Source of the DNA: Rhynchobatus australiae
Lineage: Eukaryota
Assembly (NCBI GenBank): GCA_034780895.1
Contig: JAUZTB010000098.1
Coordinates: forward strand, 22,928,107 to 22,992,106
Direction of reading: 5' to 3'
Length of the DNA stretch: 64,000 nt
Below the pieces are notes generated by a model. It was not told the DNA's origin, did not search any database, and saw only the letters and a list, made by a program, of their open reading frames with translations. Each line of letters opens with the position of its first letter. The first letter of the stretch is position 1. Shown here one piece after another: positions 1,901 through 54,499 of the stretch. A program made the translations under genes and the position numbers.

Positions 1901-2070
1901 CTGAAATAACAAAAAGAAATGCTGAAAGTACTCAGGAGATCAGACAGCATCTATGGAGAGAGGAACAGGGTAAATGGTTCAAGTTCATTGATCTGAAGTG
2001 TTAAATGTTTACCTTTCCATGCAGGTTGCCTGACCTGCTGAGTATTTTAAACATTTTCTGTTTTTATTTC
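1901..2070. mobile_element. fold-back (palindromic) Penelope-terminal-repeat derivative
   Basis: Left arm GAAATGCTGAAAGTACTCAGGAGATCAGACAGCATC... is the imperfect reverse complement of right arm ...GTTGCCTGACCTGCTGAGTATTTTAAACATTTTC; same family as the termini of the GIY-YIG-bearing copies. Confidence 0.75.
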
Positions 2071-3025
2071 TTAAGAGATAGCTAGCCAGGGACATGAATT
2101 TCTGAGTAAACCTGTTGATTGAATTGGATTTGGCTCAAGATGGTGATATGCTCACAGTGGTCACCTTGTATTTAGTGGAGTATGACTATTTGTGGGAGAT
2201 TGTTAGAAAGGCCAGCCAATAATCTTATAATCAGATAAGTAGCACTGAAGGATTAGTTTGTACCTTTGTGGAAGAAAATTGAGAAAGAAATGGGAAAAGG
2301 TATTGAGTACACCTGTGCATTATGGTTGTAGGCTGTGTTGACAAGTCTGCATTTATGCCAATTTCTTGTCGCAATATGATGGGATTGGGTGTGTGACCTG
2401 TGCTAAACCATGTGATATCTGACTACTCTGTGTGTATTTTTGGGGAAGTGGAAAGAGAACTTGGATTTTGCCGACCACAAACTTGCACTGAAGCATCGGG
2501 TTCCGATTGAAAACTATGTATTCAGCAAAGATAAACAAACCCTACAGGCATTTATAGATTTCTCATTACCTTGAATTTGAGGCTGTTGAATGTGCTGATG
2601 GATTTTCATGCATTTCAGATAGTTGGCTGACCAAATGAAACGCCAGTTCATTAAAAATGCCATCAAGTTGAGGAAGGATTACAATACGGTTTTGGCTTCA
2701 GGATTAATAACAAATAAGGAATATCTCTCTATTTTGAAATTTTGTGATGTACTGTGTTTAAGAGAACCAATGAATGATTAAGCACTTCTGCCTTGATGGT
2801 AAAGAGCAGAAGTGTGCAGATTCACATTCATCTCTAGCATTGAATCTCATGCAAGACACAAGCCAAATATTGCAGACGCTGCAAATGCAAAAATACTGGA
2901 CGTTGTCATGAGCCATTTTAGTGGAAAATGGTGTTTTTTATTTCAGGTTGATATTTGGATCAGAACTCAGCAAGCCTTTGGTACTGCTTTACTGGTAGCC
3001 TTGTGTCTCTTAAGAGAGGGAAAAG

Positions 3026-3085
3026 TTTGAAAAAGATGGATAGGAATGTGATGTGTTTGAAAGAGATGGATAGGATGGTGATGTG
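3026..3085. repeat. 30-bp tandem duplication (2 copies, 3 mismatches)
   Basis: TTTGAAAAAGATGGATAGGAATGTGATGTG / TTTGAAAGAGATGGATAGGATGGTGATGTG. Confidence 0.9.
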
Positions 3086-3432
3086 ACATGTTGTGATATT
3101 CTTCACAGTGATGTTGCCTGCCAAAATATACTGTGGAAATGTGAATGAAATTACAGTGAATTGGACAAGAGAACAGCTGCAGTGTTCTTGAGTATGGACT
3201 TAAATGCATCAGTTATAAATTAGTGCATTTAAAACTGTACTCAGGAACACTGCACATGTGAGGAATGACAATTTTTTAAAAGGAATTAGAATCAAGTCTC
3301 CTTGTGCATTGTGAACTGGGTTAAGTGTTTATTACATTGTATTCCCAAAGAATTTTATGTGGTGGGTCACCCTGAGTTGAATGGATCAGAATTCTGAATG
3401 CAGCCCCACAGAGGACTGAGTAGTGAGGGCAA

Positions 3433-3570
3433 AGATCACTTTACTTATGTGTACAAGTACATGTACGCACAGGTGCAATGGGAAAACTTACTTGCAGCAG
3501 CATCACAAGCACATGGCATCATATAAGCATCATTCACAATAAAAACCATAATTTGCAAGAAAAACATAGA
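3433..3570 (-). mobile_element. LINE 3' end fragment (Rex1/Babar-like)
   Basis: GTGCAATGGGAAAACTTACTTGCAGCAGCATCACAAGCACATGGCATC resembles the reversed 3' terminus of a chondrichthyan Rex-type LINE. Confidence 0.45.
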
Positions 3571-4024
3571 AATTTGCATTAAGAATTGAACTGTTTTTGA
3601 AGTGAGTGCGTGATACAAAGCTGCAGTTGGTACCCTTACGCAACACCAGAACTAGGACACCAAAACATGTAAATGCTGCATTTTAAGTAGTAAATCTGTT
3701 AATTTGTGCAAATCTTCATTTACAGCTGTTGAAAATGTGACAAATATTGTGCTTGGCCAGGTTAACCAGTAGGGGTCACTCTAGGGTTATTGATGAATGG
3801 AGAGAGGTTTCTGCCAGACATAATATTCTTTCAGCAGTTACTAAGCAACAGCTTCACTTTGCTAATCTTGGGTTTATTCTAACAAAATCGCAATGTCTTC
3901 CGTAATTTTCATCTTGAAGCACAGTTTTATTAGGCTTTATTAAGTGTCCCTCAAAGTGACTGCAGCAAAGATCTACATTGAATGATTTGGATTCAGAGAG
4001 GACCAGTATTTGATTTCTAATCTC

Positions 4025-6975: not shown

Positions 6976-7400
6976 CATCAGGTCCATGTTGACCAAGATG
7001 CTTTGTGGAGCTCATCTCATTTGCCTGCATTTGGCCCATATCCCTCGAAACCTTTCCGATCCATGAACCTGCCCAAATGACTTTTGAACCTGGTAATGGT
7101 AACCAGCTCTCCACATCCTCTGGCAGCTCATTCCACATAGCCACCGCCCTCTCTGTGGAAGCACTTGCCCCTCATGTCTTCTGTTAATCTTCCTCCTTGC
7201 ATCTTAAAACTATGCTCTCTAGTTTTAGTCTCTCCTACACTGGGGGGAAAAGAGACTGTGACTATTCACTTTATTTATGTGCATTAGGGTTTTATAAACA
7301 TGTATCAGGTCACCCCTCAGCTGCCTTTGCTCCAGGGAAAGTAATCCCAACCTATCCAATCTATCCTTAGAACTCGAGCTCGCCAGTCCCAGCAACATGG
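6976..7400 (-). mobile_element. CR1 (HER1-like) LINE 3' end
   Basis: Reverse strand encodes ...AMWNELPEDV...; motifs CTGAGGGGTGACCTGATA and TCTAAAACTAGAGAGCATAG-like present. Confidence 0.85.
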
Positions 7401-11006: not shown

Positions 11007-11081
11007 TGTACGATCGGTTTGTAAGACAAGCTTTTCACTGTACCTCGGTACAAGTGACAATAATAAACCAATACCAATACT
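11007..11081 (+). mobile_element. Rex1/Babar-type LINE extreme 3' end
   Basis: TTTTCACTGTACCTCGGTACAAGTGACAATAATAAACCAATACCAATAC is the reverse complement of the termini at 29386 and 39907. Confidence 0.75.
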
Positions 11082-13331
11082 AAGTCATGAAAAAGCTAGA
11101 AGCATGTTTGTTATCTTTTTGTGCAAATCAGATTTGACTCTTGATCCTTAAACATATTCCACATTCTGATAGCAATCCACTGATATTCTGACATTTCAGA
11201 TATGGCTACTTGCCATTTTATCTTCAGATGTGATGAAATAAAAGAATGTTTCCTGAACAAAAAGATAAGGACACAGTAACCACAGTGGTCTCTGACACTG
11301 CCTACAAACTGCTGTTGTCAGAACAGAGAAAGAAATTCTGAAAGGTAGTTAATGTTGTACAGAGCTGAGGAGGAATGTGTAGGGCTAAGTGAATACCTGT
11401 TATTGGGTGAGGTTGGGTTGCCATGAGAATAAGTTGTCGAGGTTATAATAGTAAATGGGGGGCAGGTGGGGAAAAAAGGGAAGGAAAGCTATGAGATGAG
11501 AATACTCACCTCGTACCAGACAATAAAACATGAGTTGTGAAATGCAGGGTTGCAGGATGTGCCCAGCAGTTCAGGCTGTGCTAATGGGAAGAGGAAAACT
11601 GAGCCAATATCGCAGATGGATACGACTTGCAGCAGAAATGGCAGGTTCTGAGGAAAAGCTCACCTGCTTTCTCACGTTGATGTGGTTTCAATATAAGAAT
11701 TGAATTAGTTCACTGAAGATCACTTTTAAGTCTTTTTTTTCTCTTCAATATCATTTTTTTTGCTGGAAAGAAAGAATGTCCTATGGTTACGGTAATCAAT
11801 CCTATAATGTTTGCATCGCGTTATAATGAAACCAAGCATCAGCATTATACAATTTGGTGTGTGACTTTGAATTCTTATGCAGNNNNNNNNNNNNNNNNNN
11901 NNNNNNNNNNNNNNNNNNNNNNNNNNNNNNNNNNNNNNNNNNNNNNNNNNNNNNNNNNNNNNNNNNNNNNNNNNNNNNNNNNNNNNNNNNNNNNNNNNNN
12001 NNNNNNNNNNNNNNNNNNNNNNNNNNNNNNNNNNNNNNNNNNNNNNNNNNNNNNNNNNNNNNNNNNNNNNNNNNNNNNNNNNNNNNNNNNNNNNNNNNNN
12101 NNNNNNNNNNNNNNNNNNNNNNNNNNNNNNNNNNNNNNNNNNNNNNNNNNNNNNNNNNNNNNNNNNNNNNNNNNNNNNNNNNNNNNNTCGTCCGTAGGTT
12201 CAGCAGCTTTATACTTCTTTGTGTCTTTGAAAACACACATTCTTAGCAACTTCAGGTCAGCCATTTTAAATGAACGATCCTGTTACTTTAGTTTCTAAGA
12301 TTTGTTCATGCAAAAAGGATGGAAGAAAGCATTTTTTTAAAATAGTGACTTCTTGTGGGAGATGGTGAGTCAGACTGACTGGCCACCATGATTGATCCTG
12401 GACCATCTCCAATTGTCAAATCACCACTAGTTAGATGAGTTATTCCAAGTAACTTGGTTCTCAAAAGAGAAAACTGCATTATAAATGAAGGCAAGTAATG
12501 TTTTTTTAAAAAAAAGTGTCATCAACTATCTTTTTAAATGTCAAATACAGGAACAGTCCATTACTGCTTGTATAGTTACTGCCATTTCTGCTGAGTTTAT
12601 GATGTGCATTAAAGGTCACAATTCGTTTAGTTCATTTTTAACATGATTGATTGGCTTAAGGATGTTATGGAAATTGAATATTGTTTTTTTTAATAAAAAT
12701 GAATCTGGAATCAACATCACCAGAGTGGTTTCTATGCCTTGCTGACCCTCATAATATATACCTTCTCTTGTTATAAGTTGGGGCAATTTCTATGCACCTT
12801 CCTTTTCTTCCCACATACCCATTCTTTCAAATAGATGATGAAGCCTATGCACCTATTTATTAACATTTGTAGGGTAGTTTAGTGGTAGATTTCTCTGGAG
12901 GTCCAAAGCATATGGTGGCTTACCTATGAAATTGCGCTTCCAGTTTTCATTTTAAGCAGTTACAGATCTTAACTAGATGTTGATGCGAGTCAGTGAACCA
13001 GAGCAAGCAAGTGGAAATAAGTTGAGGTGTTCTTTGCACAGGGAAATAAAATAACTGAAGTGCTTTCACTGCAAACATTTCCATTTTTGCAATGGAATCC
13101 ATTCTTGGAAGATTAGTTTTCTATATTCACAACTCAGACCTAACTAAACGATTTGCTCTTTGTTTCCACCAATTACTAAAAATAGACCCAGATGAACGAG
13201 TAGCTCAACAGAATTAGAACATAACCAGTTATTATTGAAACTGGCATTGAAACAATTTTATCGTTGTAATTGGAAAGATTGGGAGGAATTTATTTGAAAA
13301 TATCCTGGAGTCTTCAAAATTGTACATGAGG

Positions 13332-14530: not shown

Positions 14531-14914
14531 TCACCGATTGGGATTGGAGGATTTTGTTGACAGCAGTATTGGTGCTTCTCCAGTGCTTTGAAGTGGCCAC
14601 ACAGAGTTGCCCATCATTCTGATGTATAATGATAGATCACAATGATATTGGTAATATTACAGTATGTATTGGCCTTCAAATACTTTATTCCACAAGTTTT
14701 TAATAGCTATGCTGGCACATCTCAAGAGAGTGGGCCATTTTATCTTTAATTTCTGTCATCCTTGGAAGATGCCTTCTGAGATAAGGAAACTGACCCATGT
14801 TCACCAGGTTCTCTGCATGGATCTTAATGCATGTGATGTTGTGTGGCAGGGGTGGGTTGATGAAGAACCCTGGTCTTCATGATATTTCAGATAACCAGCC
14901 TTCCCGTTCTGTAT

Positions 14915-15195
14915 CAGAATTTGTCAGTCCCAATGAAAGGTCATCAACTTGAAATGTGATTCTGGTTTTCTCCTCAGTGTGGCTGCTTCTCTTGCTGACT
15001 ATTTCATGCATTCTTCTTTACTTCACATTTTCAGGATCACCTTATCACAGACATCTTTTTTTGACGGCAACTTAAATATGTATGGTTTCCAAGTTTTTTT
15101 CTAGTTTGAATGAAAGGTTGTTGACCTGTTGTTGACTTCTTTTTTTTTGTGCAAATGCTACCTTACCTTCTGTGTATTTCTACCATTTCTGTTCC
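14915..15195 (+). mobile_element. Penelope-like element remnant: two direct-oriented degenerate terminal repeats
   Basis: AATGAAAGGTCATCAACTTGAAATG... (about 14930) and AATGAAAGGTTGTTGACCTG... (about 15108), separated by CCTTATCACAGACAT, also seen at 49385. Confidence 0.55.
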
Positions 15196-16149: not shown

Positions 16150-16690
16150 TTGTAGCACTATTGGAGTCATGTGACACATAATTATCTATTGATTTATAGT
16201 CCAGAGAATATGACTTTACATGCATCCATGACATTTCAGAAACTGAATTTGTCTTTTCAAATTGAAACTTCATGTCAACAAAGTTGATTATAAAATTGAA
16301 ACAACTAGAAAAACATGACTGGTTCTCTCATTTAACTTAAGGAAATTTGTTGGAAATCAGGCCCAAAATGTCGACTGTTCATTTCCCTCCATAGATGCTG
16401 CTGACCCACTGAGTTCCTCCAGCATTTTNNNNNNNNNNCAGATTTCCAGCATCTGTAGTCTCTCTTGTGTCTTAAATTTGTAGTCCTCACCTGGTCTGGT
16501 CCATGTGTAACTTTGGACAAAGACCAATGTGGCTACCTCTTAACCACCTACCAAAATGCTTGAACAATATACTCAGTGGTATCAAACTATTAAAATCCAC
16601 TGGATCAAAAAGACTTGCTGTCAATTTTGGGAAACTGGAGATAGGCATTTAATATTGGCCTTCCAAGCACTGACCAGGTCACAAGAATAA
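16150..16690 (+). mobile_element. old chondrichthyan tRNA-derived SINE, interrupted at 16351-16473
   Basis: CTGGTTCTCTCAT..GGAAATTTGT|AGTCCTCACCTGGTCTGG..CAATGTGGCTACCTCTTAACC..GATAGGCATTTAATATTGGCCTT; same family as 59475-59765. Confidence 0.55.
16351..16473 (+). mobile_element. solo Penelope terminal-repeat element with 8-bp TSD
   Basis: AGATGCTGCTGACCCACTGAGTTCCTCCAGCA..CAGATTTCCAGCATCTG..TTGTGTCT flanked by AAATTTGT (16343-16350 and 16474-16481). Confidence 0.8.
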
Positions 16691-16699: not shown

Positions 16700-17165
16700 T
16701 ATACTGGAGAGGGAGCAGAAAAGATTCGCAAGGGTGTTACCAGGACTGCAGGGCTTGTGTTAGGAGGAAAGACTGGATCAGCTGTGTCTGTTTTCCCTGA
16801 AGCGAAGGAGGCTGAGAGATGACCTTGTAAATTAAGGTGGATGCTCACAGTCTTTCTCCCTGAGTAGGGGAGTCTAAAACTAGAGGGCATAGTTTTAGGA
16901 GGAGTGGGGAAAGATTTGAAGGAGACCTGAGAGGCAAGTTTTTCATAGTTAGGGCAGTAGATATCGGGAGTGAGTTGCCAGGGGAAGTGGTAGATGCAGG
17001 TATGATTAAAACATTTAAAAGACATTTGGACAGGTACATGGATAGGAACTGTTCAGAGGGATATAGCACCAATGCAGGCAAAATGGGACTAGCTCAGGAA
17101 GGTACCTTGGTTGTCATGAATGAGTTGAGCCGAAGGGCTTGTTTCCATGTTGTGTTACTCTACCT
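16700..17165 (+). mobile_element. CR1 (HER1-like) LINE 3' end
   Basis: ELPGEVVDAGMIKTFKRHLDRYMDR in ORF 16975-17199; GAGTCTAAAACTAGAGGGCATAG; tail CCGAAGGGCTTGTTTCCATGTTGTG. Confidence 0.9.
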
Positions 17166-17959
17166 CTCATATGTTTGGTTAATAAGACTGATCTTTTAAG
17201 AGTGCAGTGTTTGTGATTCTGGTATTGACTTAAAAAAATCTTTGGATAACCCAAGTGTTTGTCAAATCTTATCATTTGTTTTATTATTATTAGTATTTCC
17301 TGTTTAATAACTTTTTTAACCTTGATGCAATTTGTGAGTGAAATATTACAGGTAGTTGATTTTTTTACTGGTGCCTGTACTGTATGTTGCCTGTGGGAAC
17401 TTGGAAAAATGCATTAATCATTTGTGATTTACAGTCTAATCCAGGAGCAGAAAGGCAAAATGTAATTTAGCTTTGAAACTGGAATTAATGTTTTCTAATG
17501 GGTAGAATGCTTGCAAAAGATTTATTAGTTCCACTGCTGGAGATTTTGATAAACATAATGGGCACTTACAGCTTGATGGACTGATGGGAAGGGGAGCAAA
17601 AATAATGCCCTTCTGAGAAGGATGCAACAGCATTTATTTGATGTGTAAGAGTGTGTTTGTTCCTGGGACCATACTGTGGGGCAAATGTGAAAATGCAGCC
17701 CTGTCGAGGTGTGTTTTTCCTCACAGCAAATTTCGATTATCTTAAATGTACAATAAATTTGTGATCTGGCAACTCAGTGCCCTTCTGGAAATAATCCTGT
17801 TTATAACAAAATAAACATTTTTTAAAATGACTTAAACATTAAAAAAAAATACAGGTTATCATCCCGGGCTGATTGTTATTTGGGGGTATTTTCCCTGTTT
17901 TCTCATTTATAAGAAATTGAAGTTTTGACTTGAACAGATAAACTTGGTCTCATATTTCA

Positions 17960-18094
17960 AGAAAATCAAAAGAACTGTTGATGCTGAAACACTAAAAGAA
18001 AAAAGAAAAAATGCTGGAAGTACTCAGCAGGTCAGATGGCATTTGTGGGTAGACAAACTAAGTTGATATTTCAGGTTGAAGAACCTTCATCAGG
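17960..18094 (-). mobile_element. solo Penelope terminal repeat with hammerhead-like core
   Basis: AATGCTGGAAGTACTCAGCAGGTCAG arm; minus strand 18093-18062 reads CTGATGA-AGGTT-CTTC-AACCT-GAAA-TATC-AAC. Confidence 0.75.
18062..18093 (-). ncRNA. minimal hammerhead ribozyme-like motif (PLE type)
   Basis: CUGAUGA and GAAA boxes with perfect 5-bp stem II, palindromic AUAU minimal stem III and AUC triplet; stem I 5' strand is lost. Confidence 0.5.
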
Positions 18095-19529
18095 ATTTTC
18101 GTATTTCATTGCCTAAACAGAACATTTTTTTTGGTTTCCTCAACACATCAACACTGTAGGTGCAAAGAAAATGCAATTGTGCTTTTGAACTTCCAGATGC
18201 AGATTTTGGACACCAAGGATCGGTGAGAGAGAGCAAGTTCAAACACAAGTTTTCTGGTCATAAACACTCACTGAAGCTGCAGCCAGTTTTCTCAAGTGAT
18301 GTTTTACATTTTATAGCCCGATGGAAGCAAAACTATTGTTGTTTTTTTTGTATTATGAGCTAAGATGATTTGCTCCTGAATTTAGAACAATAGCAGATTG
18401 TTTATTTTTATCGAGTGTCGTTTAAGTCCTTGTGTGGCTTTCAAGTATGTAACATTAAACCAACAAAGGTTGTTTGTATGCAGTCTTACCAAAATAACTC
18501 TGTTGTGCATTAATTTTTGTGCTTCATAGGTCTTCAAGTTGCATACTTGAATTGCTGGATTTGTCATTGGCTTATCTCCTTTCTGTTAAATTAAAGCTAT
18601 CCAGTTCTCATCAGTATTATGCAAACATGGCTTACAGTTCCTCAACTGAAAGGCCATGTTGCAACAATTTACCTTGAAAACCGACCTATTTTGAGACCTG
18701 TGTTGCAGTGGAAATAGATTTCTACAGGTCCATGAGTGAAACATAATACAGTATGCAGTTGAATATAGGAGAAGCTAGACTTGGGTCACTCATTTTAATG
18801 ATTGCTTCCTACTTCTGTTTTGCAGGAAAGCTCTGAAATTAAATTTGTTTGCAGAACTAAGCAAAGACTAACTCCATTTCTTGCTGAGTGTGGCAGAGCT
18901 GACAGATGGAAATGGAAGGGATGATAAGATCTGTCCCAGGCTGAAAGACTGCAGTCTGACATGTACTAGACAAGATGATAGCCCTCTCTAAAGATCATTT
19001 TTCATGCAATATGTGGCTTTATCCAATTATATTTATTTATGCTCTTTAGAAATATGGTTTTGAAAAGGAATTGGTCTTGAGAATGGGACATGTAAAATGA
19101 TTAGAGTTCTTGCCGCATTCATTCTATTCATAACTAAAGTAAATAGAGGTCATTGCTTAGCTACCTTGAGGCAGTTAAAAATGATTACCAAGCCATTCTC
19201 CTGCTTTTCAATTTGAAGATGACGGTATTTGTAGCAGAAATAGAGTTTATTATAATGATCTGACAGAAGTAAGCCTATTAGAGTAACAAAAAGAATAAGA
19301 TGCTATGTTGAGCAAAAGCACTTGAACATAAGTTATAATAAGTTTCATTTAAAAAATGCTCTGCTCCGAATTAATCTGGCCTTTGTACTGAAAGATCTTT
19401 GAAAGATCTTTAAATGTTCAGAGATTCTTTTTAGCTTCACACGGGAATCAGTGAATCTATTTTCAGCTGCAACTCATCAAGTCATCTTAAATGTAAGCTT
19501 TTAAATTTATTTGAACCATTCTTTGCCCA

Positions 19530-22990: not shown

Positions 22991-23274
22991 CATCACTTGT
23001 GCATCAACAGCTTCAGCGTGGTTTGTGATTCCTATGCATGACCTTTGTAATCTCTAACTGAAAGAATGGAAATGATTTGGAAAACCAATTTTGAGCAGGA
23101 GATCATGGAAAAGGTAGAATTAGATATGCATCAAGGGCCAATAAACTTGATTTTCTCATTAAAGGAAATGTTGTGAATACTTTGGTTTAGGAGAAACACT
23201 GCTGGACATGTTATGTTCTTGCCAATGGTTGCAAACCTACTTGGCAGAGATTATCAGGGCCCAAAAAATCAGAA

Positions 23275-23510
23275 AGCAAGTTACAGATGCTGGAAATCCA
23301 AAACAAATACAGAAAATGCTGGAAATAATCCACAGGTCAGGCTGCATTTGGGAAGAGAAACAGAATCCATGTTTCAAGTTGGGGACATGACGGACTTCTG
23401 ACAAAAGGTCTNNNNNNNNNNCCCACCCGTGACATTGAATCTGTTCCTCTTCCCACAGATGTGGTCTGACTTGCTGAGTATTTCCAGCATTTGCAGTTTT
23501 ATTTTGATTA
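23275..23510. mobile_element. fold-back Penelope-terminal-repeat derivative
   Basis: Left AAATGCTGGAAATAATCCACAGGTCAGGCTGCATTTGGGAAGAGAAACAGA vs right TCTGTTCCTCTTCCCACAGATGTGGTCTGACTTGCTGAGTATTTCCAGCATTT; central CTGACAAAAGGTC is a decayed core. Confidence 0.8.
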
Positions 23511-24204
23511 CCAAGGCCTTGCTGGTTTCCTTATCAACCTATTCAGACTAACGATCTTATTTACTGCAATAAGATGTGTAGTTCATTGAAAATCTCCTGA
23601 AGTTCACCAGACATTAAACTTAAGGAAGATTTTGCAAATTGCATATTATGGACTTGCTTACAAGCTTCAGAGTTCTGGATATTGCAGCATTCTGCAATGA
23701 AATTCATGAAATATGTGTTTTGAAGCCTTTATTGAAACCTGGGTTCAATGGATCTATTTCAGGCTTCAAAATTCTTGAACAAAAAATGGGAGTTTGCATG
23801 TTGGGGGTAAGTTGTGAGAAGACCAGAAGGAAAATGACAGAGTGGAATTATAGCAAGCAGCTGAGGCTCAAAATGGCTATGTTTCATTCATTAATAGGCC
23901 AAATAAATGTGTTCTTAATTAGTCAATGGGGAGAAAGTGTTGCAATTACTTAAGTATTTTATGATTAAAAATTGAAGGAAGAAAAAATATATTGAACTCT
24001 CAGGAAACAGTAAAACTACTGAAAGGTGTTCAGTAAAAATAAAAGGAAGAAATAATGTTGGCACTTTGACCTGCTCAAACAGTATCCAATGGTTCATTTA
24101 ACACTCAGCTGAAATATGTATTTATGGTATGATTGTAGACATGAACAACATACAGCAAACACCTCAAGGCAATGGAAAGAAACAGAATCTCTGCAAAACC
24201 TCCA

Positions 24205-33652: not shown

Positions 33653-33780
33653 AGACACAAGACTGCAGCTGCTGGAATCTGGAGCAAAAAGCAAACTCCT
33701 GGAGGAAGTCAGCAGGTCAGGCAGCATCTGTGGAGACAAAGGAATGGTTAAAGTTTCGGGTCAGCTCCCTGCATCAGGTC
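33653..33780 (-). mobile_element. solo Penelope terminal repeat (younger subfamily)
   Basis: AGACACAAGACTGCAGCTGCTGGAATCTGGAGCAA..GGAGGAAGTCAGCAGGTCAGGCAGCATCTGTGG; minus strand core CTGATGCA-GGG..CCC-GAAAC. Confidence 0.8.
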
Positions 33781-34487
33781 CGTCAACTGCAGTTGATTGT
33801 TGGCAAAATGGGCCCAGGTGATATGATCATTGGCTCTATATTAGCTTTGCTTGGAGAAAACTGATTTCAGATTGTCATGAAAAGCTTTTGAGAGCAAATG
33901 GGTCAGGATGGTGGGAAACAAGTTGCTGCATGGCTCTGCTAAAGCAGCAGAAGTTCACATAACTTCACTCTGGACATCAAACTATTTTAATTGGTGAAGT
34001 TTTATTGTTAGTAATCATTGGCATAATTTTACTGCCCTTTGATAGGGAAATCTCCATGGAACACATTACAGTAGCCTAGCCTGATTGGTATGTAACTGCT
34101 TGTCCCTTTTATGGAGACTGGTTCTTATTTATGTTTCTGTGGAGATCTATTGTGTCAGTGTGCATCTCATCAGGAAAAGCATGTTTCCATAGTCTGCTGA
34201 AGTCTTTAAAATCACTCAGCAGTTTTCATTAAGATGATGCCACTGCAATATTAGTTTTCATCAGTTATGCTTTCAAAGTTTGGAGAAAATCATTCCAGTC
34301 ACAGTGTGAATAGTGCAGGGCAGCCTGGCATGAAAAGTCATGCTCAGGGGAACTGTGCAGATTTATCCCATTTTCGAGAGCTGAAAATTTCTGTCAGCTT
34401 ATGCATGGTCCTTGAGAACAGATGGACAAACACAAGCACACCCTCAACTTTCTTTGAGAAAACTGATCACTTCTGCCTGTTAACCGA

Positions 34488-34981
34488 GTCGTAGAGAAAG
34501 GAATAGGCCCTTTGGCTCACTGAGTCCATGGTCACCATCAATCACCCATTAACACTACAATGCAGGGTTTTCACCCAAAGTCCCCATCCTCCAACAGATG
34601 CTGCTCGATCTACTGAGTTCCTCCAGCAGATTGTTGCTCCAGATTCCAGCATCTGTTGTCTCTTGTGTCTCCTGAGACTCATTAACACCAATTTAACATG
34701 CATTCCATTTTTTACTCTCGTTTTCTTATCATTGACTCACCTAGATTCTACCACACAAAAGGGGTATCTTCTAGAATCTTCTGATAGTATTATACTATAA
34801 TCTTACATTATGTTACAATATATTCTTGTATTCTCCACACTTGAGGCAACTTACAATGGACCATTAGCCTATGTTTGGGATGTGGGAGGAAACTGGAGCA
34901 CCTGGAGGAAACCCACAGAGTCACAGGGTGAACATGCACACTCTACACAGCACCTGAGGTCAGGATTGAACCTAGATCACC
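34488..34981 (-). mobile_element. HE1-type V-SINE, interrupted
   Basis: TTTGGGATGTGGGAGGAAACTGGAGCACCTGGAGGAAACCCACAGAGTCACAGGG (reversed V-domain), GGATTGAACC (reversed B-box), CR1-type tail at 34490-34530. Confidence 0.85.
34556..34679 (+). mobile_element. solo Penelope terminal repeat inserted in the V-SINE, 9-bp TSD
   Basis: ATGCAGGGTTTTCACCC..CAGATGCTGCTCGATCTACTGAGTTCCTCCAGCA..CCAGATTCCAGCATCTG; CATTAACAC at 34547-34555 and 34680-34688. Confidence 0.8.
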
Positions 34982-38594: not shown

Positions 38595-38712
38595 AAAGTC
38601 AAAAATTGCAGATGCTGGATATATGACATTACAAGTGATAATGCTGGAAAGACCATGTAATTTCTGATGAAGAGTCTTCAACCTGAAACATTAACTCTTT
38701 CTCTTCCAGCAG
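38595..38712. mobile_element. truncated fold-back Penelope terminal repeat with hammerhead-like core
   Basis: TGCAGATGCTGGA..AATGCTGGAAA then CTGATGA-AGAGTCTTCAACCT-GAAA-CATTAAC (38664-38695, + strand). Confidence 0.7.
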
Positions 38713-39906
38713 ACCTCCTTCAGTATATATTTGCCCAGGCTAACATTTGCCACCTGGAGTTTCATATTAATTTCCATTATTCCTGGATACTCAACTCAAG
38801 TTATTAATCTGTAATTCACTCCCTTTTTGAAGTGGGCCAACATTTGTAATGAAATTAAAATTTACCATTTGTATCCACACTTCACAGAATATGGTTAAAG
38901 AGTAGGAAAAAAACAGCAATTGTTTGCAGCTTATGATACAGTACTCAGATTTGCACACACAGGTGCCAATCTACTATTTCCGTTTTGGTTCTGATAATTA
39001 AATCTTTCAACCCTGTAATTCAGGTATATCTAGCTTCTGTGAGTAGTACTGATGTTTATTCTGTGGTCACTAGTTCTTCCCTGGGAACACATGCTGAAAT
39101 AAAGCAGTAAGTGTGCAACAGCCAATTGTTAAGAATTTAATCTTGTTGCTATTGATCTTATTGTTGGAGCAGTGCTAAGTTTAATGGACATTTATGTTGT
39201 TTGCACAAAATGCCAATAACTGTATGTAACCCAGCAATGTCATTGATGCCGTGTAAAGGTTCTAATTCAGCCCATGCAGGTCCTGCAGCTTTTATTAATG
39301 TGATAAATAATTTTATTCTTGCATACTTGCTTGCTCCAAAGACATTGCTGTCTTGTTGCTGACACACGTAGACTTGACCAGTTAAGAAGACCTATTTGAT
39401 GCACAGATCAGCTGGAACTTTTACTTTAGATTAACTACAAAACAATTGATGGAGAAAATTTTCCACATCTTGAAGTTATTTAAAAGGTACAAATGTCTTG
39501 GGGAGTTGATTTTTGACATTATCATACTGCTCTACTCAATAAGAACAAAGCTAGTTTCTTTAATTCCATAGTCCGTTTGTCCACTTCCATTTGAGACTAC
39601 CTATGCAAATTCACAAGGGAGCCGACAGATTTTCAATTTAAATTCCCCAGACTATTGTCTGAACTGTGGAAAATGTCGAAAGAATTTCCAATTTGGCGGT
39701 GAAAGATGTCCCAAATAGATGAATGAGAAATTAATACATTGAATNNNNNNNNNNNNNNNNNNNNNNNNNNNNNNNNNNNNNNNNNNNNNNNNNNNNNNNN
39801 NNNNNNNNNNNNNNNNNNNNNNNNNNNNNNNNNNNNNNNNNNNNGTGCAAAATGGCTGGGAAGTTCATTTTAGTTGTGCATTTATACCATCTCGACACAT
39901 CTTTTT

Positions 39907-40615
39907 ATTGGAAATGGTTTATTATTGTCACTTGTACTGAGGTACAGTGAAAAACCTATCTTGCATACTCTATATGCAGATCAATTCATTACACAGTGCA
40001 TTGAAGTAGTACACGATAAAATGATACAGAATAAAATGTAACAACTGCAGAGAGTGCAGTGCAGGTAGTCAATACGGTGCAAGGTCATAACGAGGTAGAT
40101 TGTGAAATTGAGTCCATCTTATTGTACTTGGGAATCGTTCTATAGCAGGATAGAAGCTGTCCTTGAGCCTGTTGGTATACGCTTTCAGACTTGTGTATCT
40201 TCTGCCGAAGGGTGGTGGGAGAAGAGAGAATGTCCAGCGTGGATGGGGTCTTTGATAATGCTAGCTGCTTTACCAAGGCAGTAAGAGGTATAGACAGAGT
40301 CCATGGAGGGGAGGCTGATTTCTGCGATGTGCTGAGCTGTGTCCACAACTCTGCANNNNNNNNNNNNNNNNNNNNNNNNNNNNNNNNNNNNNNNNNNNNN
40401 NNNNNNNNNNNNNNNNNNNNNNNNNNNNNNNNNNNNNNNNNNNNNNNNNNNNNNNNNNNNNNNNNNNNNNNNNNNNNNNNNNNNNNNNNNNNNNNNNNNN
40501 NNNNNNNNNNNNNNNNNNNNNNNNNNNNNNNNNNNNNNNNNNNNNNNNNNNNNNNNNNNNNNNNGTCGTTCTCCACTGTTGTCAGTCAGCAGAGTCTTGT
40601 ATCCTCTGCCAACTC
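39907..40615 (-). mobile_element. Rex1/Babar LINE 3' portion spanning a gap
   Basis: Collinear with 29386-29900 (ATTGGAAATGGTTTATTATTGTCACTTGTACTGAGGTACAGTGAAAAAC...); after the gap the reverse strand gives LAEDT (cf. FADDT). Confidence 0.85.
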
Positions 40616-41305: not shown

Positions 41306-41589
41306 AGCATTTCAAGTTAGGTAAATTCTATTGCCTGATTAAGCTGAATGATGAAAAATGCAGAAAGTATCTGCTTGTTGTTGAACCTCCTGCTGCTGGG
41401 AACAGCTTATCCAGAATTATTTTGTCAAAACCCTTGGCTGGGGATGCATTTCTACATTTATGAGTGAATTGTGGTTCAGGGATCAGAAAAGTAGAGAGAT
41501 GAACTGAAAAGAATGACTCAGGAGACCTTAGAAAAGAGAGAATACTTTCCTCACCAAGTGAAATAAAAATGTAAAAGCAAGAAAACTGT

Positions 41590-41985
41590 AGTGAAAACAA
41601 ATGCTAGAAATTCTTAACAGATCAGGCAGTGTCTGTGGGGAGAAACATGTCACAATGAGAAGAGTGTTTTTAGTCCCAGAGAGTGGCTGGTGTGAAGAGA
41701 GCAAGGGGGGATGTCAGTGACTGAGTATAGGCCAAACCAGGGTTGTGAAGCTGACACAATATTTTGAGAGCCATATAGTCAATAGACAAAATACACACAA
41801 ACATATATGCATGCACACACACACACACACAGATATTTTTTTATATATATATGATGAAGAGAGAAAACAAAAAAATCTGCTGGAACTGTTTGTGACAGGT
41901 CACTACTGTTGTTGGAAATCTGATATAAATGGCAATGCCTGAAAAATTCAGCAGATCAGAGATCATTAGTGGAGAAATCACAGAA
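41590..41985 (-). mobile_element. two degenerate Penelope terminal-repeat arms with an intervening (CA)n/(TA)n
   Basis: AAATGCTAGAAATTCTTAACAGATCAGGCAGTGTCTGTGGGGAGAAAC (41598) and GTTGGAAATCTGA..AAATTCAGCAGATCAG (41911); CA run about 41813-41830. Confidence 0.55.
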
Positions 41986-44689: not shown

Positions 44690-45080
44690 TATAGCAAACA
44701 GAAATTGGAAGAGCAACATCTAGTACTCTGCAGGGGTAGCTTCCAACTTAATGGTTTGAATATTGAACTTTGCAGTTTCAAGTAACCCACACCCACTCTG
44801 TTCTCCTCCCACACGTACTCACCCATCCACCTAGTTTTCTTCTTCTCCCTTTGTTTTCCTCCCCATCTGGCTCCAGCTATCACCCACTAGCCACCATCTT
44901 GCCTCCCCTGCCCCCTCTATATATTGGCCGCTTTTCTTCCCTCTCAGTCAGGATTCAGGGTCATGACCTAAAACAGAGACTTGCTCCTTTTGCCTCCACA
45001 TTTGCTGCCTGACTCGCTGAGTTTTTCCAGTATTCTTTTTTTTGTTCCAGATTCCAGCATTTGCAGTCTCTCTTTTATCT
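44690..45080 (+). mobile_element. 5'-truncated Penelope-like element: GIY-YIG C-terminus, 3' UTR and terminal repeat
   Basis: ORF 44567-44785 ends KQKLEEQHLVLCRGSFQLNGLNIELCSFK* (cf. PLE RKLEEQHLIFRLG.LQP.GLNIEF.NF), followed by a C/T-rich UTR and the terminal repeat. Confidence 0.85.
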
Positions 45081-48000: not shown

Positions 48001-48184
48001 TGCACAATTGCTGAATTGAATGGGATGATGTCCAACCAGTCCTCATTAGTGATAAAATGAGCTCTCTTAAACAATTTTGTTGTTGATGACATTTTGAGCA
48101 GGAAGCAAAACACAAATTATTTCTCAGAACATGCCGGAATTCATGTAAAAACAGAGCCACCCTGACCAAAGAAACGGAGAGTTA

Positions 48185-49545
48185 GCAGCTGAAAGCTGCA
48201 GATGCTGGAAATCCAAAAAACACACTGCTGGAAGCACTCAACAGGCCAAACAGCATCAGTGGGGAGAGAAACTGAATCAGCATTTTAGGTCAAGGATCCT
48301 TCATCAGAGGTAGAAAACTGAGGTAATAACTATGTTTTAACTTGATTGAGTTGAACAGAGAGATGGAATGCATGTTAGAGAGTGTAGACCAAGTAGTCAA
48401 GATAACAATTACTTTTAAAAGTGGGCAGAAAAGCAAAATGAAAGAAATTGAGACAAATTTGCAGCCAAGTTCATGAAAGTAAAGAGAGAGGTGTTACCTG
48501 AGGGTTGTCACATACCCAGACAAAAGCTGAGGTGCTGCTTGTCCCACTTATGTTGGGCATTGTTGGAGACCTGAGTAAGAATAGGATGGAGAACTGAAGT
48601 GACAGGAGACTCATTGCCCTTGCAGATTGAACATAAATGCTTTGCAAAGCAGTCATCCAATCAATAGTGTTTTCTCCAGTGTAAAGGAGGCTGTATGATG
48701 AGCACTGAATGCAATACTCCAGATTGGAATTGCCACTACATGTGGAAGTACTGTTTGCAGGAAGGAATGAAGTGAAAGCAGATATACATTCCCTATGATT
48801 GAATGGGAAAGTTCTGGGAGAACAGGAGTGTTTGGTGGAGATGGGAAAGGGGATCAGGAAATCTTGGATGGATTAGTCCCTTCAGAATGTTGCTAGGTAT
48901 GGAGGACGAGTCAGTGGTGGAATCTTGTTGGAAGAAGCAGAAATTATGGATGATGACTAGTGTGGAGGATGCAAGATGAGATCAAAGAGAACTCTTGTTC
49001 CAGCTGGGAGGGAGAGAGCAGAACTGTGAGAAATAGGTGAAGTGTTGTTGAGAGCTTAGTAGCTATTGTCAAGGGAAAGTCACAGTCAAAGAAAAAAACT
49101 GTAAACCAACTGGTGTACAAGGTCTTGTCATCAGAGCAGAGAGGATGAGATAGAAAACTGGGTGGATAGAAAACTTCCACTCTGAGCTCTGTCTTTGGTC
49201 TCCTGCATTGTTTCATCAACACACAGAATTGGCTTGAGGAAAGCTGCCTCAGTTTTTGTCGGTTGCATTAGAACTAACAGGGCTGAATAATGAATTTCAA
49301 AATTTTAGGTAGCCCTCTTTCTCTCTTGACACAGATGTTGACTGTAGCTTTCTGTTTCAACGTGTTTCTTTTTTTGTGCAGTCCCCATATCACAGACATA
49401 CCCCTGCTCTCTCCATCCTTCCCCCTCACCACAACTTACAGTGCTCATCTCACTTTTCAATTCTGATGAAGGGTCCTTGATCTGAAATGTCAACTGTTTC
49501 TCTTCTCTTGCTTGACCTTTGGAGTGCTTCCAGAATCATTTTTTT
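48185..49545. mobile_element. Penelope-like element with internal inversion, bounded by inverted terminal repeats
   Basis: Minus strand 48730-48620 SNLEYCIQCSSYSLLYTGE..DCFAKHLCSIC (GIY-YIG); plus strand 49180-49311 GLLHC..LEE..TGLNNEFQNFR*; arms at 48185-48310 (-) and 49455-49545 (+), both with CTGATGAAG. Confidence 0.8.
49458..49496 (+). ncRNA. minimal hammerhead ribozyme-like motif (PLE type)
   Basis: CAAUU-CUGAUGA-A-GGGUC-CUU-GAUCU-GAAA-UGUC-AACUG: both conserved boxes, stem II with G-U pairs, GUC triplet, 4/5 bp stem I. Confidence 0.55.
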
Positions 49546-50156
49546 TAAGGGAGAATTAAGCACCTTGAAATGGGACAAAACCCCATTTTCTCCAAGTTGT
49601 GTCTGACTTTGCTGTGCAGAATTTCTTTGTTTCTTTCCTCTATTGAAAAGTCAATTATGATCAGAAAGATGGTGTCTGATTTGAATGCCAGTGCCAAGAA
49701 ATCATGAATTCATACTTTTTATTGAGAATGAAGTGGGGGTGGTGGAGGGGCTACCAGGAAAAAAGTTATAAAAATAGCATGTTTGAGAATGGCATGTTTG
49801 TAATGGGCTGCTTGAATGGCAGTAATGTCAAATTCTAAAGTTTATAGTAAAGAGACATCTGACGGTATATTTATAGGCAGCACATTGGTGGCAGTAGTTC
49901 AAGCATGGTCACTGTGTAAACATTGGATTCCCTTTTATGCTTTAAGTGCTTAGGGCTGTAGGTCAGCAATGAAGGAGAAAGTTTATTTTATTTGTTTAAC
50001 CTTGTGTGAATTTCTGCAGTAATCTACGAACATATTTAGACCCATGTTCCTGATGTGAGTAAAGCATATGACTCAAATAAGTTTTTAGTCGGGAAAAAAA
50101 AGTAAATGAGTGCTTTATTTGACATTACTGACTCTCGGGCCAGGTTTGCAACTTGG

Positions 50157-50304
50157 CGACACAACGGATTGCAGATGCCAGAATCTGGAGCAAAACAAAA
50201 CAAACTGCTGGAGGAGCTCAGCGGATTCAGCAGCATCTGTGGAGGCAAAAAATGGTCAATGTTTCAGGCCAGGACCCACTGATTTCCTCGAGCACTTTGT
50301 TCTA
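50157..50304 (-). mobile_element. Penelope terminal repeat with short fold-back, TSD-like flanks
   Basis: GACACAA..TGCAGATGCCAGAATCTGGAGCAA..CTGCTGGAGGAGCTCAGCGG; flanks TGCAACTTGG (50147-50156) and TGTAACTTGG (50305-50314). Confidence 0.8.
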
Positions 50305-50959
50305 TGTAACTTGGTCTCAGGGCATTGAACCATTGACATCAGAAAATTGTTCTGGCAAATTGTTCAGTTTTGGTAAAGAAGTATTTCCACTTGGGCACTG
50401 ATGTTACATTGATGATATTGCTCTTCAGCAGGCAGTTTAATGCTTCACACATTTGTTAATTATTTTGCTGCAAACAGAAGACCTCCCTGTGTAGCAATCT
50501 GTATTGGGCAAGTTCTAAAATTTTCCAGTGCATCAGTGTTTAGTCTATTGTCATCGAGTGCAATGAAATTCCTTGTTCACATGAAGCTTGTAGAATAAAC
50601 AGTATACATGGTAATAATAAATACAAATACAAAAATAAGTACAACGATGAGCACAAAAACAGCAAAAATAATCATTCAAATCTTTGGCTTCAAATGGCTT
50701 TGACCTGCCCTGAAATGCAGTGGTTTGTTTTTCTGTAGAATATAGGTCGGCGAGTTCTTTATCTGAGAAAAAAATAATGACCACAGTGTGAAGTATTGCA
50801 GCTATGTGATCAGTTTCATGCCCTTGGCATTTTATCCCCTTGAGTTTTGGACTGAACAAGATAACATTTGAAGGAAGCACCTTTCCTGATACCATTAGTT
50901 GTCTTGTGAGGGGCACAAAGCCAGTATTGCTGCATGGGTGAACAAACCTGAAATGAATT

Positions 50960-51585
50960 GCAGAGGAGATTCACCAGGATCTTGCTTGGATTGGAGGACT
51001 TGTATTATGGGGGGAGATTGGATAGGCTGGGCTTGTTGGAGCAAAGGAGGCTGAGGGTGACCTGACAGAAGTATATAATATTATGAAAGGCCTAGATTGG
51101 ACAGAGTCAGAATCTTTTTTCCCATGTAGGGGTATGGAACATAGAACTATACAGCACAGGAAGAGGTCCTTCGTCCCATGATGACATGTTTCATGCCATT
51201 TGAAACAAATCCCATCTGCCTGCACATTGTCTATATCCCTCCATTCCCTGCCTGTTCATGTGCTTGTCTAAATTCCTTGTAAATGTTGCTATTGTATCAA
51301 AAACTAGGGCATAGGTTTAAGGTGAGTGGTAGGAGATTTAAAGGGGATTTTATCGGTAATTTTTTAAACATTGGTTTATGTTAAAAACATGCTGCCAGAG
51401 AAGGTGGTAGAATTAGATACTTTACAATATTTAGGAATCACTTTGGCAGGCACTTGAATAGGCAAGGCATGGAAGGATATCGTCCTGAAATGGGCAAATG
51501 GGATTAGTGAAGATGGGCAAAAAGATTATCTGTAAATGGTGGGCCGAAGGGTGCGTTTTTGTGCTGTACAACCCTGACTCTATGA
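50960..51585 (+). mobile_element. CR1 LINE 3' end with nested inverted CR1 tail (51137-51298)
   Basis: GAGGAGATTCACCAGGAT..GGCTGAGGGTGACCTGACAGAAGTATATAA..CTAGGGCATAGGTTTAAGGTGAG..GGGCCGAAGGG..GTGCTGTAC; insert begins AACATAGAACTATACAGCACAGG. Confidence 0.9.
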
Positions 51586-52159
51586 GCTCCCCAGTGGATC
51601 TGCTGGACTTTACAGCTTTCTTCTCAAATACTCATTACAAAAGCAGCTTTAGGAAGTCTCATTAAACAGTGCAGGGAGCCTCAGGATCTAATGAACCTTC
51701 GAGCTTCCCATATAATAATCCAAGAAATTGAGATGAAATATTTTGGATAAAAAGAAATATGCATCAAGCAAAGCAGAGAATGAAGAGCAAGGAGAGTGCA
51801 TGGCATTGTTCTTTTAACTTCATGTGGTGTTGTCTGGCTCATGGGGAATCAGATGGAGAAAGCAGCATTGTCATCTTGCACAAGTAAAATTCTATTGTGA
51901 ACTTTTGAGAAGAAGACATGGAGGAGAAAGGTTCTGTGTATCCAAGAGAACCAAGTGGAAAAGTTATGATTGTTTCTCTAAGTTGGTTGAATTCATTGAT
52001 GAAGTTGGAAGAGAATGGGTGGAATGTTTGTGATTTTTCAAACAGTGAAGATTGTGCTCTCTTCAAGCTTTTAATATTAATAATGATTGGTGATGGCTTT
52101 CATCAGTGTGCAGTATGACTTGCTAGACAGTTGAAATTGATGGGTCTGTGCAGGGTGTA

Positions 52160-52280
52160 TTGGAGCAACACACAAAACGTTCGAGGAAATCAGGAAATGC
52201 TGCCTGACCTGCTGAGTGTTCCTGCAGCATTTTGTGCGTGTTGCTCCAGATTCCCAATCTGCAGAATCTCTTGTGTGTCA
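52160..52280. mobile_element. asymmetric fold-back Penelope terminal repeat
   Basis: TGGAGCAACACACAAAA pairs with TTTTGTGCGTGTTGCTCCA; contains ATGCTGCCTGACCTGCTGAGT. Confidence 0.75.
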
Positions 52281-52323
52281 GCATGCATTGAAGTGTCATG
52301 GAGACAACTACTCTGGTCACTTG

Positions 52324-52481
52324 CAGCAAAAAACAGACTGCTGGAGGAACTCAGTGGGTCAAGCAGAATCTGCAGAGGCAAAGGGATGGTTGATGTTTTG
52401 AGTGGAGACCCTGCATCTTGATTGGACCGTGCAAGCAGTTTGTTTTTTGCTACAGATTCCCACATCTCTTGAGTCTCCGTT
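52324..52481. mobile_element. fold-back Penelope terminal repeat with exact 13-bp TSD
   Basis: AGCAAAAAACAGACTGCT pairs with AGCAGTTTGTTTTTTGCT; CTCTGGTCACTTG at 52311-52323 and 52482-52494. Confidence 0.85.
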
Positions 52482-54499
52482 CTCTGGTCACTTGATGGTT
52501 CAAGATTCGTTTGTCTGAATTTTGATCTTTTTTAAGTAATGAGCTGAATCATGCAAAGTCATCTAAAATATTAATTAGTGATCAAATAATGAGAAAATTA
52601 TTTTTTAAGAACAGTGGCCTGGTTCCAGCTCCTTTAGTTAGTGCACTTCTCATTGTGGAAATAAGATGCAGGTCTGGAAGAAAGTGATGGCACTTTAATT
52701 GTTACAAAATGCAAGAAAGTGAAGTAGACCACCAGAGTTAAAAATTGGGAAAAGGCTGTTTGATTCAGAAAAGCTTAATAAAGTGATCTCTTCATTAATC
52801 TCAAAACTGAACTCATGGCAAAGTTTAGACATTTGTCTTCTTAAACTACAGAATGTAAAGTTAAATTACTCACTATGTTCTCTATACAATTGCAACTGTT
52901 TTTTTGAGCTAGGATGGGTTGTTTACTGCTGTGTTCAATGAAACTGGCAGGTCCTGCTGGTGCTGAGGAGAGTGTGAGGGTAAATGGAGATTGTAATACC
53001 TAAACATGTTCAAAACTGTGATTTGCTGAAGCTTACTGTAACTATGTAAGACATGCAAGGTAACATGTGAGTCTTCCACTGTTCATGGTAGATAGTTGAT
53101 CAATTGTTAATCTGACTGTCAATTTAAAAACTGCATGATTTGGTAATGAAATGTTTAATGACATTTTATGAATGTTAAAATGAATCCCAGTAACAGAATT
53201 TTATTCCCAGAATAAGAATTAGTGTTGAGGACTGTTTAAAAAGATAGGCAGACTAAAATGCAGCACTCCTATTGATGTGTGTTTTAATATTCAATGTCCT
53301 GTCCATTTCAGTTAGTCTGAGGTACATATGCATACACCATATGTGCAGGAATCTGCAGGGAGCACCTGTGTCCCAAAGGTCTTGTCATTCTTACTGATTT
53401 ATTGTTTGCAAAGGATGCATTGGAAAAATACAGAAAGTTTAAAACATAGACATCTGCAGAAGCTTTATATGAAAATTTAAAAATAGGAATGAATACGGTT
53501 CATAAGAAAATAAGTGGAGCATGTATTACTTAAACATATGGTACATTAGACTGAAGTCTCAAGGTTATTGTTCAAATATCCTCCCTGTTTTTTCAGAAAG
53601 GCAGAACGAATTGTCGGATTAAGCCAGCACGTTGGAAATGTCTGGCTGGTTAAATTAATTGTTCACTGTGGGGATAAAAATCATCTAAATATTAAACATT
53701 TTAGTTGAAATATACTTGAAATGATGTTGGTTAAAAAGCTTTTCAAGGTAATAAGATCTCATGGTGTCATACAGAAAATGTGGATTTGTATTTGACCCTT
53801 GTAATAAACTAATGCAGATATGCAACAAATAAAAGAAAAAAAGTATAATAAAAATGGTTTTAGTGTTTTCTTACTTGTTATTTCTACTTAGTTAAATTCT
53901 TCAATCTGAATTTGGAAGGTAAGGAAGATATTATTTTGACTCTGAAATGCCTGGTTGCAGATTGCATCCAATTGTCTTCACACTGAAAGAGATTGAGGAA
54001 TCAATGCATGAAAAGTGGGCTGTTCTTAAAATTCATTCTTCACTTTATAACAATTTATGTTGAGGAGGGGGAAGACAGTAATGGCCAATGACCTACAGAG
54101 ACAAGTTATTACTATTAAGGAAAACAGTGCTTCATTCCAAATTGCAATTAATTTGCTTGCCTCTATCACTTTTATATTTGGTTGCTATTGACTTTCAAGT
54201 TTTGCTCAGAGATTTTGACTGGTTGGCTGATTATTTTCTGGCGATTTACAAATGAAAAAAGAAGCAACACTCTGTGCTTGAAATAAAATTAAAATGTCAT
54301 TGAAAAGCTTTTGTGCTGTGGTTCAGTAATATGTAAACAGTGTTTTACCCCATCTTGAATATATTGACGTTTTTGACCCTTGGGTATTTTGCTTTGAGTG
54401 GGACAGACATGGTTATGTTGAATTAGTACTGGTTTCACATGGCTCTGAGGTCAAGCAAAGTAGGAACAGTTCATGTCTGTACAAACTTGCTGGAGTTCA

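Follow-up and report, generated by a model that had tools for sequence, protein, structure and literature searches.

Hammerhead-bearing repeats in a Rhynchobatus australiae contig as probable Penelope terminal repeats, one subfamily with an altered core

Introduction

What are the short related repeats, several with the look of a minimal hammerhead ribozyme, that recur along a 64,000-nucleotide stretch of the Rhynchobatus australiae genome (GenBank assembly GCA_034780895.1, contig JAUZTB010000098.1, forward strand 22,928,107 to 22,992,106; hereafter the window, meaning the whole stretch analysed)? The original prediction, made from the sequence, saw in them a separate non-autonomous family, resembling retrozymes or short interspersed elements (SINEs) and mobilised by a Penelope-like partner. 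Our analysis leads elsewhere: the units are most likely very short, dead copies of the 3′ terminal repeat (pseudo-long terminal repeat, pLTR) of Penelope-like retrotransposons that are autonomous, encode an endonuclease and probably belong to the Neptune clade. Two autonomous Penelope subfamilies, here called A and B and represented by solo or truncated pLTRs, are the best reading.

Penelope repeats have been known since 2014 to carry minimal hammerheads, among them single dispersed motifs and pairs on opposite strands, and thousands per genome are reported in coelacanth and Xenopus (PMC4209133). What the hammerhead does for these elements has been called unclear (Craig et al., PMC8557442).

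Results

The repeat family

An iterated nhmmer profile search, combined with self-comparison of the window, recovers 22 related arms with E<1e-3, of which each strand carries 11, and two small inverted arm fragments (50271-50307(+) and 52150-52192(-); null fractions 0.005 and 0.01), together forming 16 insertion sites (Table 1). The roughly 15 short units listed in the original prediction are all real and related, every coordinate being covered by the profile, which adds the arm at 11549-11650(-). Merged to 15 loci, the family occupies 3,944 of the 59,360 non-N bases (6.6%), and the claimed high copy number is thereby borne out as high density within the window; about one site per 4 kb would come to roughly 250,000 per gigabase in a genome for which the window is representative. 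Arms are commonly 120-160 nt long with the hammerhead on their 5′ side, and 17 of the 22 span its cleavage site.

By appearance, the arm consensus also holds a splice-acceptor-like stretch, with two pyrimidine tracts ending in CAG and a CTGAC upstream (e.g., 33653-33794(-)). An intron end can sit in Penelope pLTRs (PMC4209133).

Linkage to an endonuclease

Three arms lie 150-185 nt behind the end of an endonuclease coding region and are joined to it via an untranslated region (UTR), the distance from stop to core being 165 nt in 44690-45075 and 150 nt in 49188-49549. Long upstream homology, comprising the UTR and the endonuclease end, is confined to these three arms. The arm had been proposed to sit directly downstream of GIY-YIG remnants, and this arrangement is what we see three times, the coding ends being putative and assigned by motif. 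In two of the three pairwise DNA alignments between the ends (b-a and b-c, with the ends labelled a, b and c), the score exceeds that of every one of 500 shuffles. A six-frame search of the window finds the GIY-CxxC-YIG pattern once, inside the element at 48725(-), with 0.03 occurrences expected per simulated window for a pattern that was written after seeing the sequence. Each subfamily includes a member that is continuous with an endonuclease end, 48185-49549 in A and 44690-45075 in B.

Ahead of the GIY motif lies a stretch resembling a linker, with only part of the CX2-5CxxC cysteines kept in one frame, and a by-eye comparison finds the linker, R/H and E...GLN regions similar to the Neptune rows in Fig. 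S2 of Craig et al. 2021 (PMC8557442). Judged by this motif comparison only, the clade is probably Neptune. Naiad is ruled out by the C-terminal position of the endonuclease.

Some candidates were tried and rejected. Three phmmer matches of the open reading frame (ORF) were to unrelated repeat-rich proteins. A 22-nt pattern had two matches in bacterial and archaeal genomes, both in actinomycete contigs of 67-70% GC with no homology beyond the pattern, which we take as chance; it had none in plasmids and phages.

Insertion anatomy

Exact flanking repeats of 7-13 bp bound five of the 16 sites, against 7.3% expected per site (p=0.004), and four of these five belong to subfamily B. Head-to-head inverted pairs make up seven of the 16 (1878, 23271, 38601, 48185, 50157, 52160 and 52324). 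In four of the five pairs that could be scored, one of them borderline, only one of the two arms carries a terminal block, with scores of 30/13, 28/14, 36/12 and 11/20 where the 99th percentile of the null is 20; the same scoring reveals two 3′ end points among the arms. The insertion at 48185-49549 consists of a body and an inverted, 5′-truncated second copy that match over about 400 nt. A single head-to-tail pair exists in the window, with broken cores at 14930 and 15107.

Penelope copies are described with an inverted 5′-truncated copy and a one-sided tail of 30-40 nt (PMC8557442), and with 8-10 bp duplications, inverted pLTRs, a 31-bp one-sided tail and solo pLTRs (PMC3846280). The present family shows these insertion features, namely inverted or partial-tandem pLTRs, an optional tail and variable target duplication. 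The features of retrozymes and SINEs that we tested are absent from it in this window: there is no tandem array of complete hammerheads, no tRNA and no Rfam match to 5S or 7SL that could serve as an RNA polymerase III head, and the best A and B box matches in the arm consensus carry 3-4 mismatches.

By eye, 15043-15054 and 49389-49400 match exactly over 12 nt and lie comparably far from the core, a hint that the second arm of the head-to-tail pair has kept about 65 nt of UTR; its anchored score is marginal.

The hammerhead motif

Read in order, the family alignment shows stem I (4 bp), the first box, a single bulged A, stem II (5 bp), GAAA, two bases that vary, U-H and finally the 3′ strand of stem I, which is the layout of the published minimal Penelope consensus (PMC4209133, Fig. 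S3) with all features in one register. Across nine copies, picked because they span the whole motif, stems I and II are paired in 75.3% of 81 cells against 14-47% in slid controls, and the closing pair of stem II is kept in all nine. A CpG-aware consensus forms 9/9 pairs with a hammerhead fold at -10.6 kcal/mol, the predicted minimum being another fold at -12.8 kcal/mol; the CpG rule used to build it also made position 4 C. Single copies range from -4.8 to +9.8 kcal/mol in the hammerhead-like fold, with one not evaluable. The core letters are the majority in subfamily A at all 11 positions (64/75 cells).

The dinucleotide between GAAA and U-H is TG in four of the nine aligned copies, CA in three, TA in one, CT in one and CG in none. 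Since TG and CA predominate and CG is never found (n=9), we infer that the ancestral stem III was, at the level of the consensus, an ACGU palindrome that has been lost to CpG decay in every copy. The claim of a minimal type I hammerhead with a palindromic stem III thus fits the CpG-aware consensus, with the palindrome present at consensus level only. The claim of CpG decay is confirmed, the stem III CG being kept in 0/9 copies. All core letters survive in three arms, and individual copies are probably inactive now.

A descriptor scan finds both core boxes intact together with the U-H site at only three places, 18093-18062(-), 38664-38695(+) and 49463-49494(+). These are three of the four motifs that had been singled out as clearest; the fourth, at 48307(-), has an intact first box and mutated G12 and U16.1. 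When stems are required, one match (49463) is left, against none in 30 simulations. A covariance model built from the nine copies matched only its training copies in the window, the next best having E=0.6.

CA at core positions 4-5, the other product of CpG decay, is seen in copies 14930 and 34557 and hints at C4 in some source elements; U4C is a known low-activity natural hammerhead variant (PMC3088659).

Two subfamilies and core position 9

Eight arms form clade B with a support of 0.957. Arms of B are 65.6% identical to one another, those of A 54.8%, and arms of different subfamilies 53.2%; because identity within B is the higher, B is probably the younger. The copy at 44930, which is linked to an ORF, falls inside the B clade, and for this reason we read B as having its own coding element.

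The subfamilies differ in the ribozyme core. Position 9 is A in 7/7 A arms and C in 4/4 informative B arms (Fisher p=0.003), so that the reading for B is a small sample of four copies; the comparison leaves out five arms truncated there and two doubtful ones, 1995 (A) and 11635 (grouping with A, C at this position), and with these two included the counts are 8:1 versus 0:4 (p about 0.007, by hand). Matches to the first box fill 36/42 cells in A versus 12/24 in B (p=0.003), and the adjoining strand of stem II is equally kept (24/28 and 13/16, p=0.69). B is also mixed at core positions 3 and 4. Changes at A9 strongly lower hammerhead activity. A9 is part of the consensus hammerhead core (PMC3088659).

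Feature list and other repeats

Table 1. Arms of the repeat family and associated Penelope remnants in the window.
Feature	Position	Strand	Details
Head-to-head inverted pair, subfamily A	1878-2075	1878-2010(-), 1975-2075(+)	junction inside hammerhead; no terminal block scored on either arm
Decayed arm, groups with A	11549-11650	-	C at core position 9; E 2e-12
Two subfamily A arms, head-to-tail	14914-15190	+	cores 14930 and 15107, 177 nt apart; first boxes decayed, 4/6 and 3/6
Subfamily B arm cut inside stem II	16351-16473	+	8-bp target duplication at 16343 and 16474; 10-N gap
Subfamily A solo arm	17960-18101	-	7-bp target duplication at 17953 and 18102; 5′ end 8 nt upstream of C3
Hammerhead remnant of the 17960-18101 arm	18059-18099	-	both core boxes intact (C3 18093, G12 18072); stem I broken beside core
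Head-to-head inverted pair, subfamily A	23271-23520	both	terminal block on minus arm only; 10-N gap in plus-arm loop
Subfamily B arm	33653-33794	-	C at core position 9 (C3 33777); 14-bp palindrome at 5′ edge
Subfamily B solo arm	34556-34679	+	9-bp target duplication at 34547 and 34680; starts 1 nt before C3; C at position 9
Inverted pair, subfamily A	38601-38762	both	tail-bearing minus fragment and internally deleted plus arm; core boxes intact at 38664 and 38685
Decayed arm	41566-41647	-	begins at or after cleavage site
Decayed arm with terminal block	41896-41979	-	begins at or after cleavage site
Putative GIY-YIG endonuclease C-terminal end	44690-44785	+	E and GLN motif region, stop 44783-44785; precedes subfamily B arm
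Pyrimidine-rich 3′ UTR, arm and tail	44786-45075	+	165 nt to C3; degenerate hammerhead at 44950, C at position 9
5′-truncated Penelope body	48185-49190	-	broken ORF of about 700 nt (linker, GIY-CxxC-YIG at 48725, R/H region, C-terminus), 3′ UTR
3′ part of the 48185-49190 body		-	hammerhead at 48307; arm with terminal block
Inverted 5′-truncated second copy, same insertion	49188-49549	+	endonuclease end (stop 49310-49312), UTR, arm without terminal block
Best-preserved hammerhead	49457-49497	+	within the 49188-49549 copy
Flanking repeat of the insertion 48185-49549	48176, 49550		9 bp, one mismatch
Subfamily B arm cut in stem II, joined to 35-nt inverted fragment	50157-50307	-	7-bp target duplication at 50150 and 50308
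Subfamily B inverted pair without hammerhead	52160-52277		minus fragment 52160-52192 and plus arm 52193-52277
Subfamily B inverted pair	52324-52481		minus arm with degenerate core (C3 52419, C at position 9) and plus fragment with tail
Target duplication of the 52324-52481 pair	52311, 52482		13 bp

Other repeats share the window. Copies of about 400 bp, 67-73% alike, lie at 6992-7398, 16715-17155, 26798-27248, 55263-55650 and 60989-61379, and also at 50960-51285 and 54632-55043; the translation of 16864-17199 looks like the 3′ end of what we take to be a CR1-type long interspersed element (LINE), with no Pfam match. A second LINE-like family is found at 27538-27891, 29386-30100, 39906-40353 and 11017-11079, and the ORF 27559-27891(-) matches Pfam PF09004 (E 4e-10), a domain presumably of Rex1/Babar-type elements. 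An imperfect 78-bp palindrome at 3174-3259, with a chance match to a microRNA family in Rfam, could be a small inverted-repeat element. There are also a self-inverted 46-bp repeat (29151-29196) and a near-perfect 35-bp tandem duplication (56610-56684). The CpG observed/expected ratio of 0.21 and the 4,640 N in 18 gaps are those of a methylated, vertebrate-like draft assembly; no host exon was identified in the window.

Discussion

The Penelope origin claimed in the original prediction is supported by the linkage to endonuclease ends, the insertion anatomy and the hammerhead consensus. Several results nevertheless pull against our reading of the units as pLTRs of autonomous elements. The truncated copies in the window contain no reverse transcriptase core. 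The ORF found no endonuclease match in Pfam (nine ORFs and six read-through frames), PHROGs (seven pieces), PDB or three homologue searches, and no confirming match in the ESM Atlas (best 0.84); the six-frame Pfam scan returned nothing for 50201-64000, with 1-50200 covered in selected pieces. The third alignment between endonuclease ends, a-c, is not significant, as 72 of 500 shuffles score as high, and the GIY-CxxC-YIG pattern has the weakness of its after-the-fact wording. Eleven of the 16 sites lack an exact duplication of at least 7 bp, and the pair at 1878 carries the tail on neither arm. A UTR is detectable in only three of the 22 arms, most copies thus being free of an ORF, and arm 5′ ends cluster near the hammerhead, where a dedicated short master would also place them.

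The tests aimed at the ribozyme belong to the same account. Without stems, the three descriptor matches are within chance (simulated windows average 1.0 and reach 4), and therefore the hammerhead case rests on the family alignment and not on single copies. An Rfam scan of the window at E<=5 gave three chance matches and no hammerhead. Excess core conservation and covariation across copies had been proposed as a test, and neither was found: the core in subfamily A is 85% conserved (64/75) versus 78% (167/215) for the tail block (p=0.18), and stem covariation does not exceed shuffles (398, 391, 397, 401 and 236 of 500), the nine old copies giving this comparison little power. Such negative results do not refute hammerhead ancestry, because neutrally decayed copies would show neither signal.

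The main competing explanation is the one first proposed, in which a short non-autonomous master, derived from a pLTR and resembling a SINE or a retrozyme, is transcribed alone and copied in trans by a Penelope protein. Some observations speak for it. UTR homology is not significant in 19 of the 22 arms; among the 13 core-reaching arms tested it is significant only in the three that are linked to an ORF, and marginal in 15107 (p~0.05) and 14930 (p~0.09). Short copies bounded by target duplications measure 123-158 nt, and the 177-nt spacing of the one head-to-tail pair would suit such a master as well. Vertebrate retrozymes derived from pLTRs are reported, one chondrichthyan among them (bioRxiv 10.64898/2026.07.22.740005), and in a rotifer the pLTR alone is enough for mobilisation in trans (PMC3846280). 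However, the 5′ ends of the arms are not uniform: in the profile alignment they range between about 15 nt upstream and 76 nt downstream of C3, where offsets of -15 to -17 mark the start of the profile itself and are not taken as true ends. The copies span the cleavage site and do not begin at it. The position of the ORF-linked 44930 copy within B, and the failure of short A copies to separate from the ORF-linked A copies, also argue against a separate master, as does the lack, in the window and the arm consensus, of a tandem array, a tRNA head or a good polymerase III box. With both subfamilies linked to ORFs and bearing Penelope insertion marks, a separate family is not the simplest reading, and we consider it unlikely.

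It could also be supposed that the hammerhead likeness is incidental, a hairpin of the repeat having acquired the core letters by chance. The descriptor count, the covariation and conservation tests and the Rfam result given above speak in its favour. Against this, the features of the published minimal consensus are all found together in a single register, and the repeat that holds the motif is a Penelope terminal repeat, a setting in which such motifs are reported to be general (PMC4209133); chance is very improbable as an explanation. Least credible is that copies 49463, 38664 and 18093 were kept as active, host-co-opted ribozymes: they retain all core letters, and 49463 has 8/9 stem pairs, but the CG palindrome on which dimer pairing depends is gone from each, their hammerhead-like folds stand at +2.1, +8.7 and +9.8 kcal/mol against the consensus value, none has a same-strand partner nearby, and three intact copies out of seven in A are not unusual at 85% per-site identity.

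How might autonomous Penelope elements leave such short arms? For the anole Poseidon element PAc, it is reported that the protein cleaves and extends both target strands, that reverse transcription starts at internal sites 111-118 nt into an ORF whose start lies in the hammerhead, that the ribozyme cleaves only with the protein, and that in vitro unprocessed RNA is the main substrate and ribozyme activity is not needed for insertion (PMC11167929). Following this literature, the element protein would nick both target strands, and reverse transcription would proceed from two nearby sites about 110-150 nt past the hammerhead, on uncleaved RNA. Having begun at an internal site, synthesis may then have stopped at or near the hammerhead, or switched there to the opposite strand, where a second priming took place, and the outcome would be solo arms and head-to-head pairs. 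The stop could arise either where the RNA begins, if priming took place on the 5′ pLTR of the mRNA, or where structure stalls the enzyme. Two copies bounded by duplications begin 8 nt and 1 nt before C3 (17960-18101 and 34556-34679), and several inversion junctions lie within or beside the ribozyme.

Cleavage by the ancestral A hammerhead was probably weak, and would have taken place in a dimer or with the help of the element's protein. The B source elements would already have had the altered core, and for that reason cleavage was probably not needed for their spread. C9 in B, together with arms that span the cleavage site, suggests in the same way that cleavage is dispensable for spread. More tentatively, and as a conjecture that we hold possible at best, the younger B may have multiplied to very high copy number from source elements that had already lost the canonical core; the copies of 120-160 nt would have been primed on the mRNA 5′ pLTR, their 5′ ends marking a transcript start a little upstream of the ribozyme, and the fold would matter as a structure or a protein-binding site and not as a catalyst.

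The family shares with the Penelope hammerheads of PMC4209133 the consensus and layout, single motifs in truncated copies and pairs that lie on opposite strands at a distance of 100-700 bp. Unlike it, the rows of Fig. S3 in that work that we compared include no cartilaginous fish, and all have A at position 9, which their descriptor required, where B has C. The density here would be far above the counts given there, which are of intact motifs only. With the Neptune elements of Craig et al. (PMC8557442), the likeness extends to a C-terminal GIY-YIG domain that follows a linker and has a pair of cysteines between GIY and YIG, and to GLN near the end, as well as the inverted 5′-truncated copy and the one-sided tail; the present elements differ in being decayed remnants only, with linker cysteines partly lost and no reverse transcriptase core.

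PAc (Frangieh et al. 2024, PMC11167929) belongs to another clade and differs in sequence, and it nevertheless has two 3′ end points and a hammerhead some 110-150 nt ahead of the 3′ end, as here; PAc copies uncleaved RNA, and our arms span the cleavage site. The arm consensus contains a 42-codon open frame from an ATG inside the core, reminiscent of pLTRs that include the ORF start as in PAc (PMC11167929), a weak likeness that fails in B copies, whose loop is 1 nt shorter. Non-long-terminal-repeat retrozymes are likewise short, non-coding and pLTR-related with a type I hammerhead; they differ in consisting of tandem units, each with a complete ribozyme, that give circular RNAs (PMC7229834; bioRxiv 10.64898/2026.07.22.740005), whereas the copies here are dispersed and often inverted. 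One of nine dimers tested is reported to have cleaved (bioRxiv 10.64898/2026.07.22.740005).

Conclusions

In the main, these repeats are an ordinary example of known Penelope hammerheads; what seems to be new is the altered core of subfamily B, the younger group. The literature that we searched contains no description of this family or of an A9C hammerhead. Lunse et al. reportedly collected about 150,000 Penelope hammerhead variants, which may already include this family or the position 9 variant. For annotation, such repeats should be labelled as Penelope pLTR fragments and not as SINEs or active ribozymes. If a canonical-core A and an altered-core B are indeed both abundant, the role of the ribozyme would become testable from sequence alone, and, should the altered-core reading of B be true, this genome would be a natural experiment on hammerhead fold versus catalysis.

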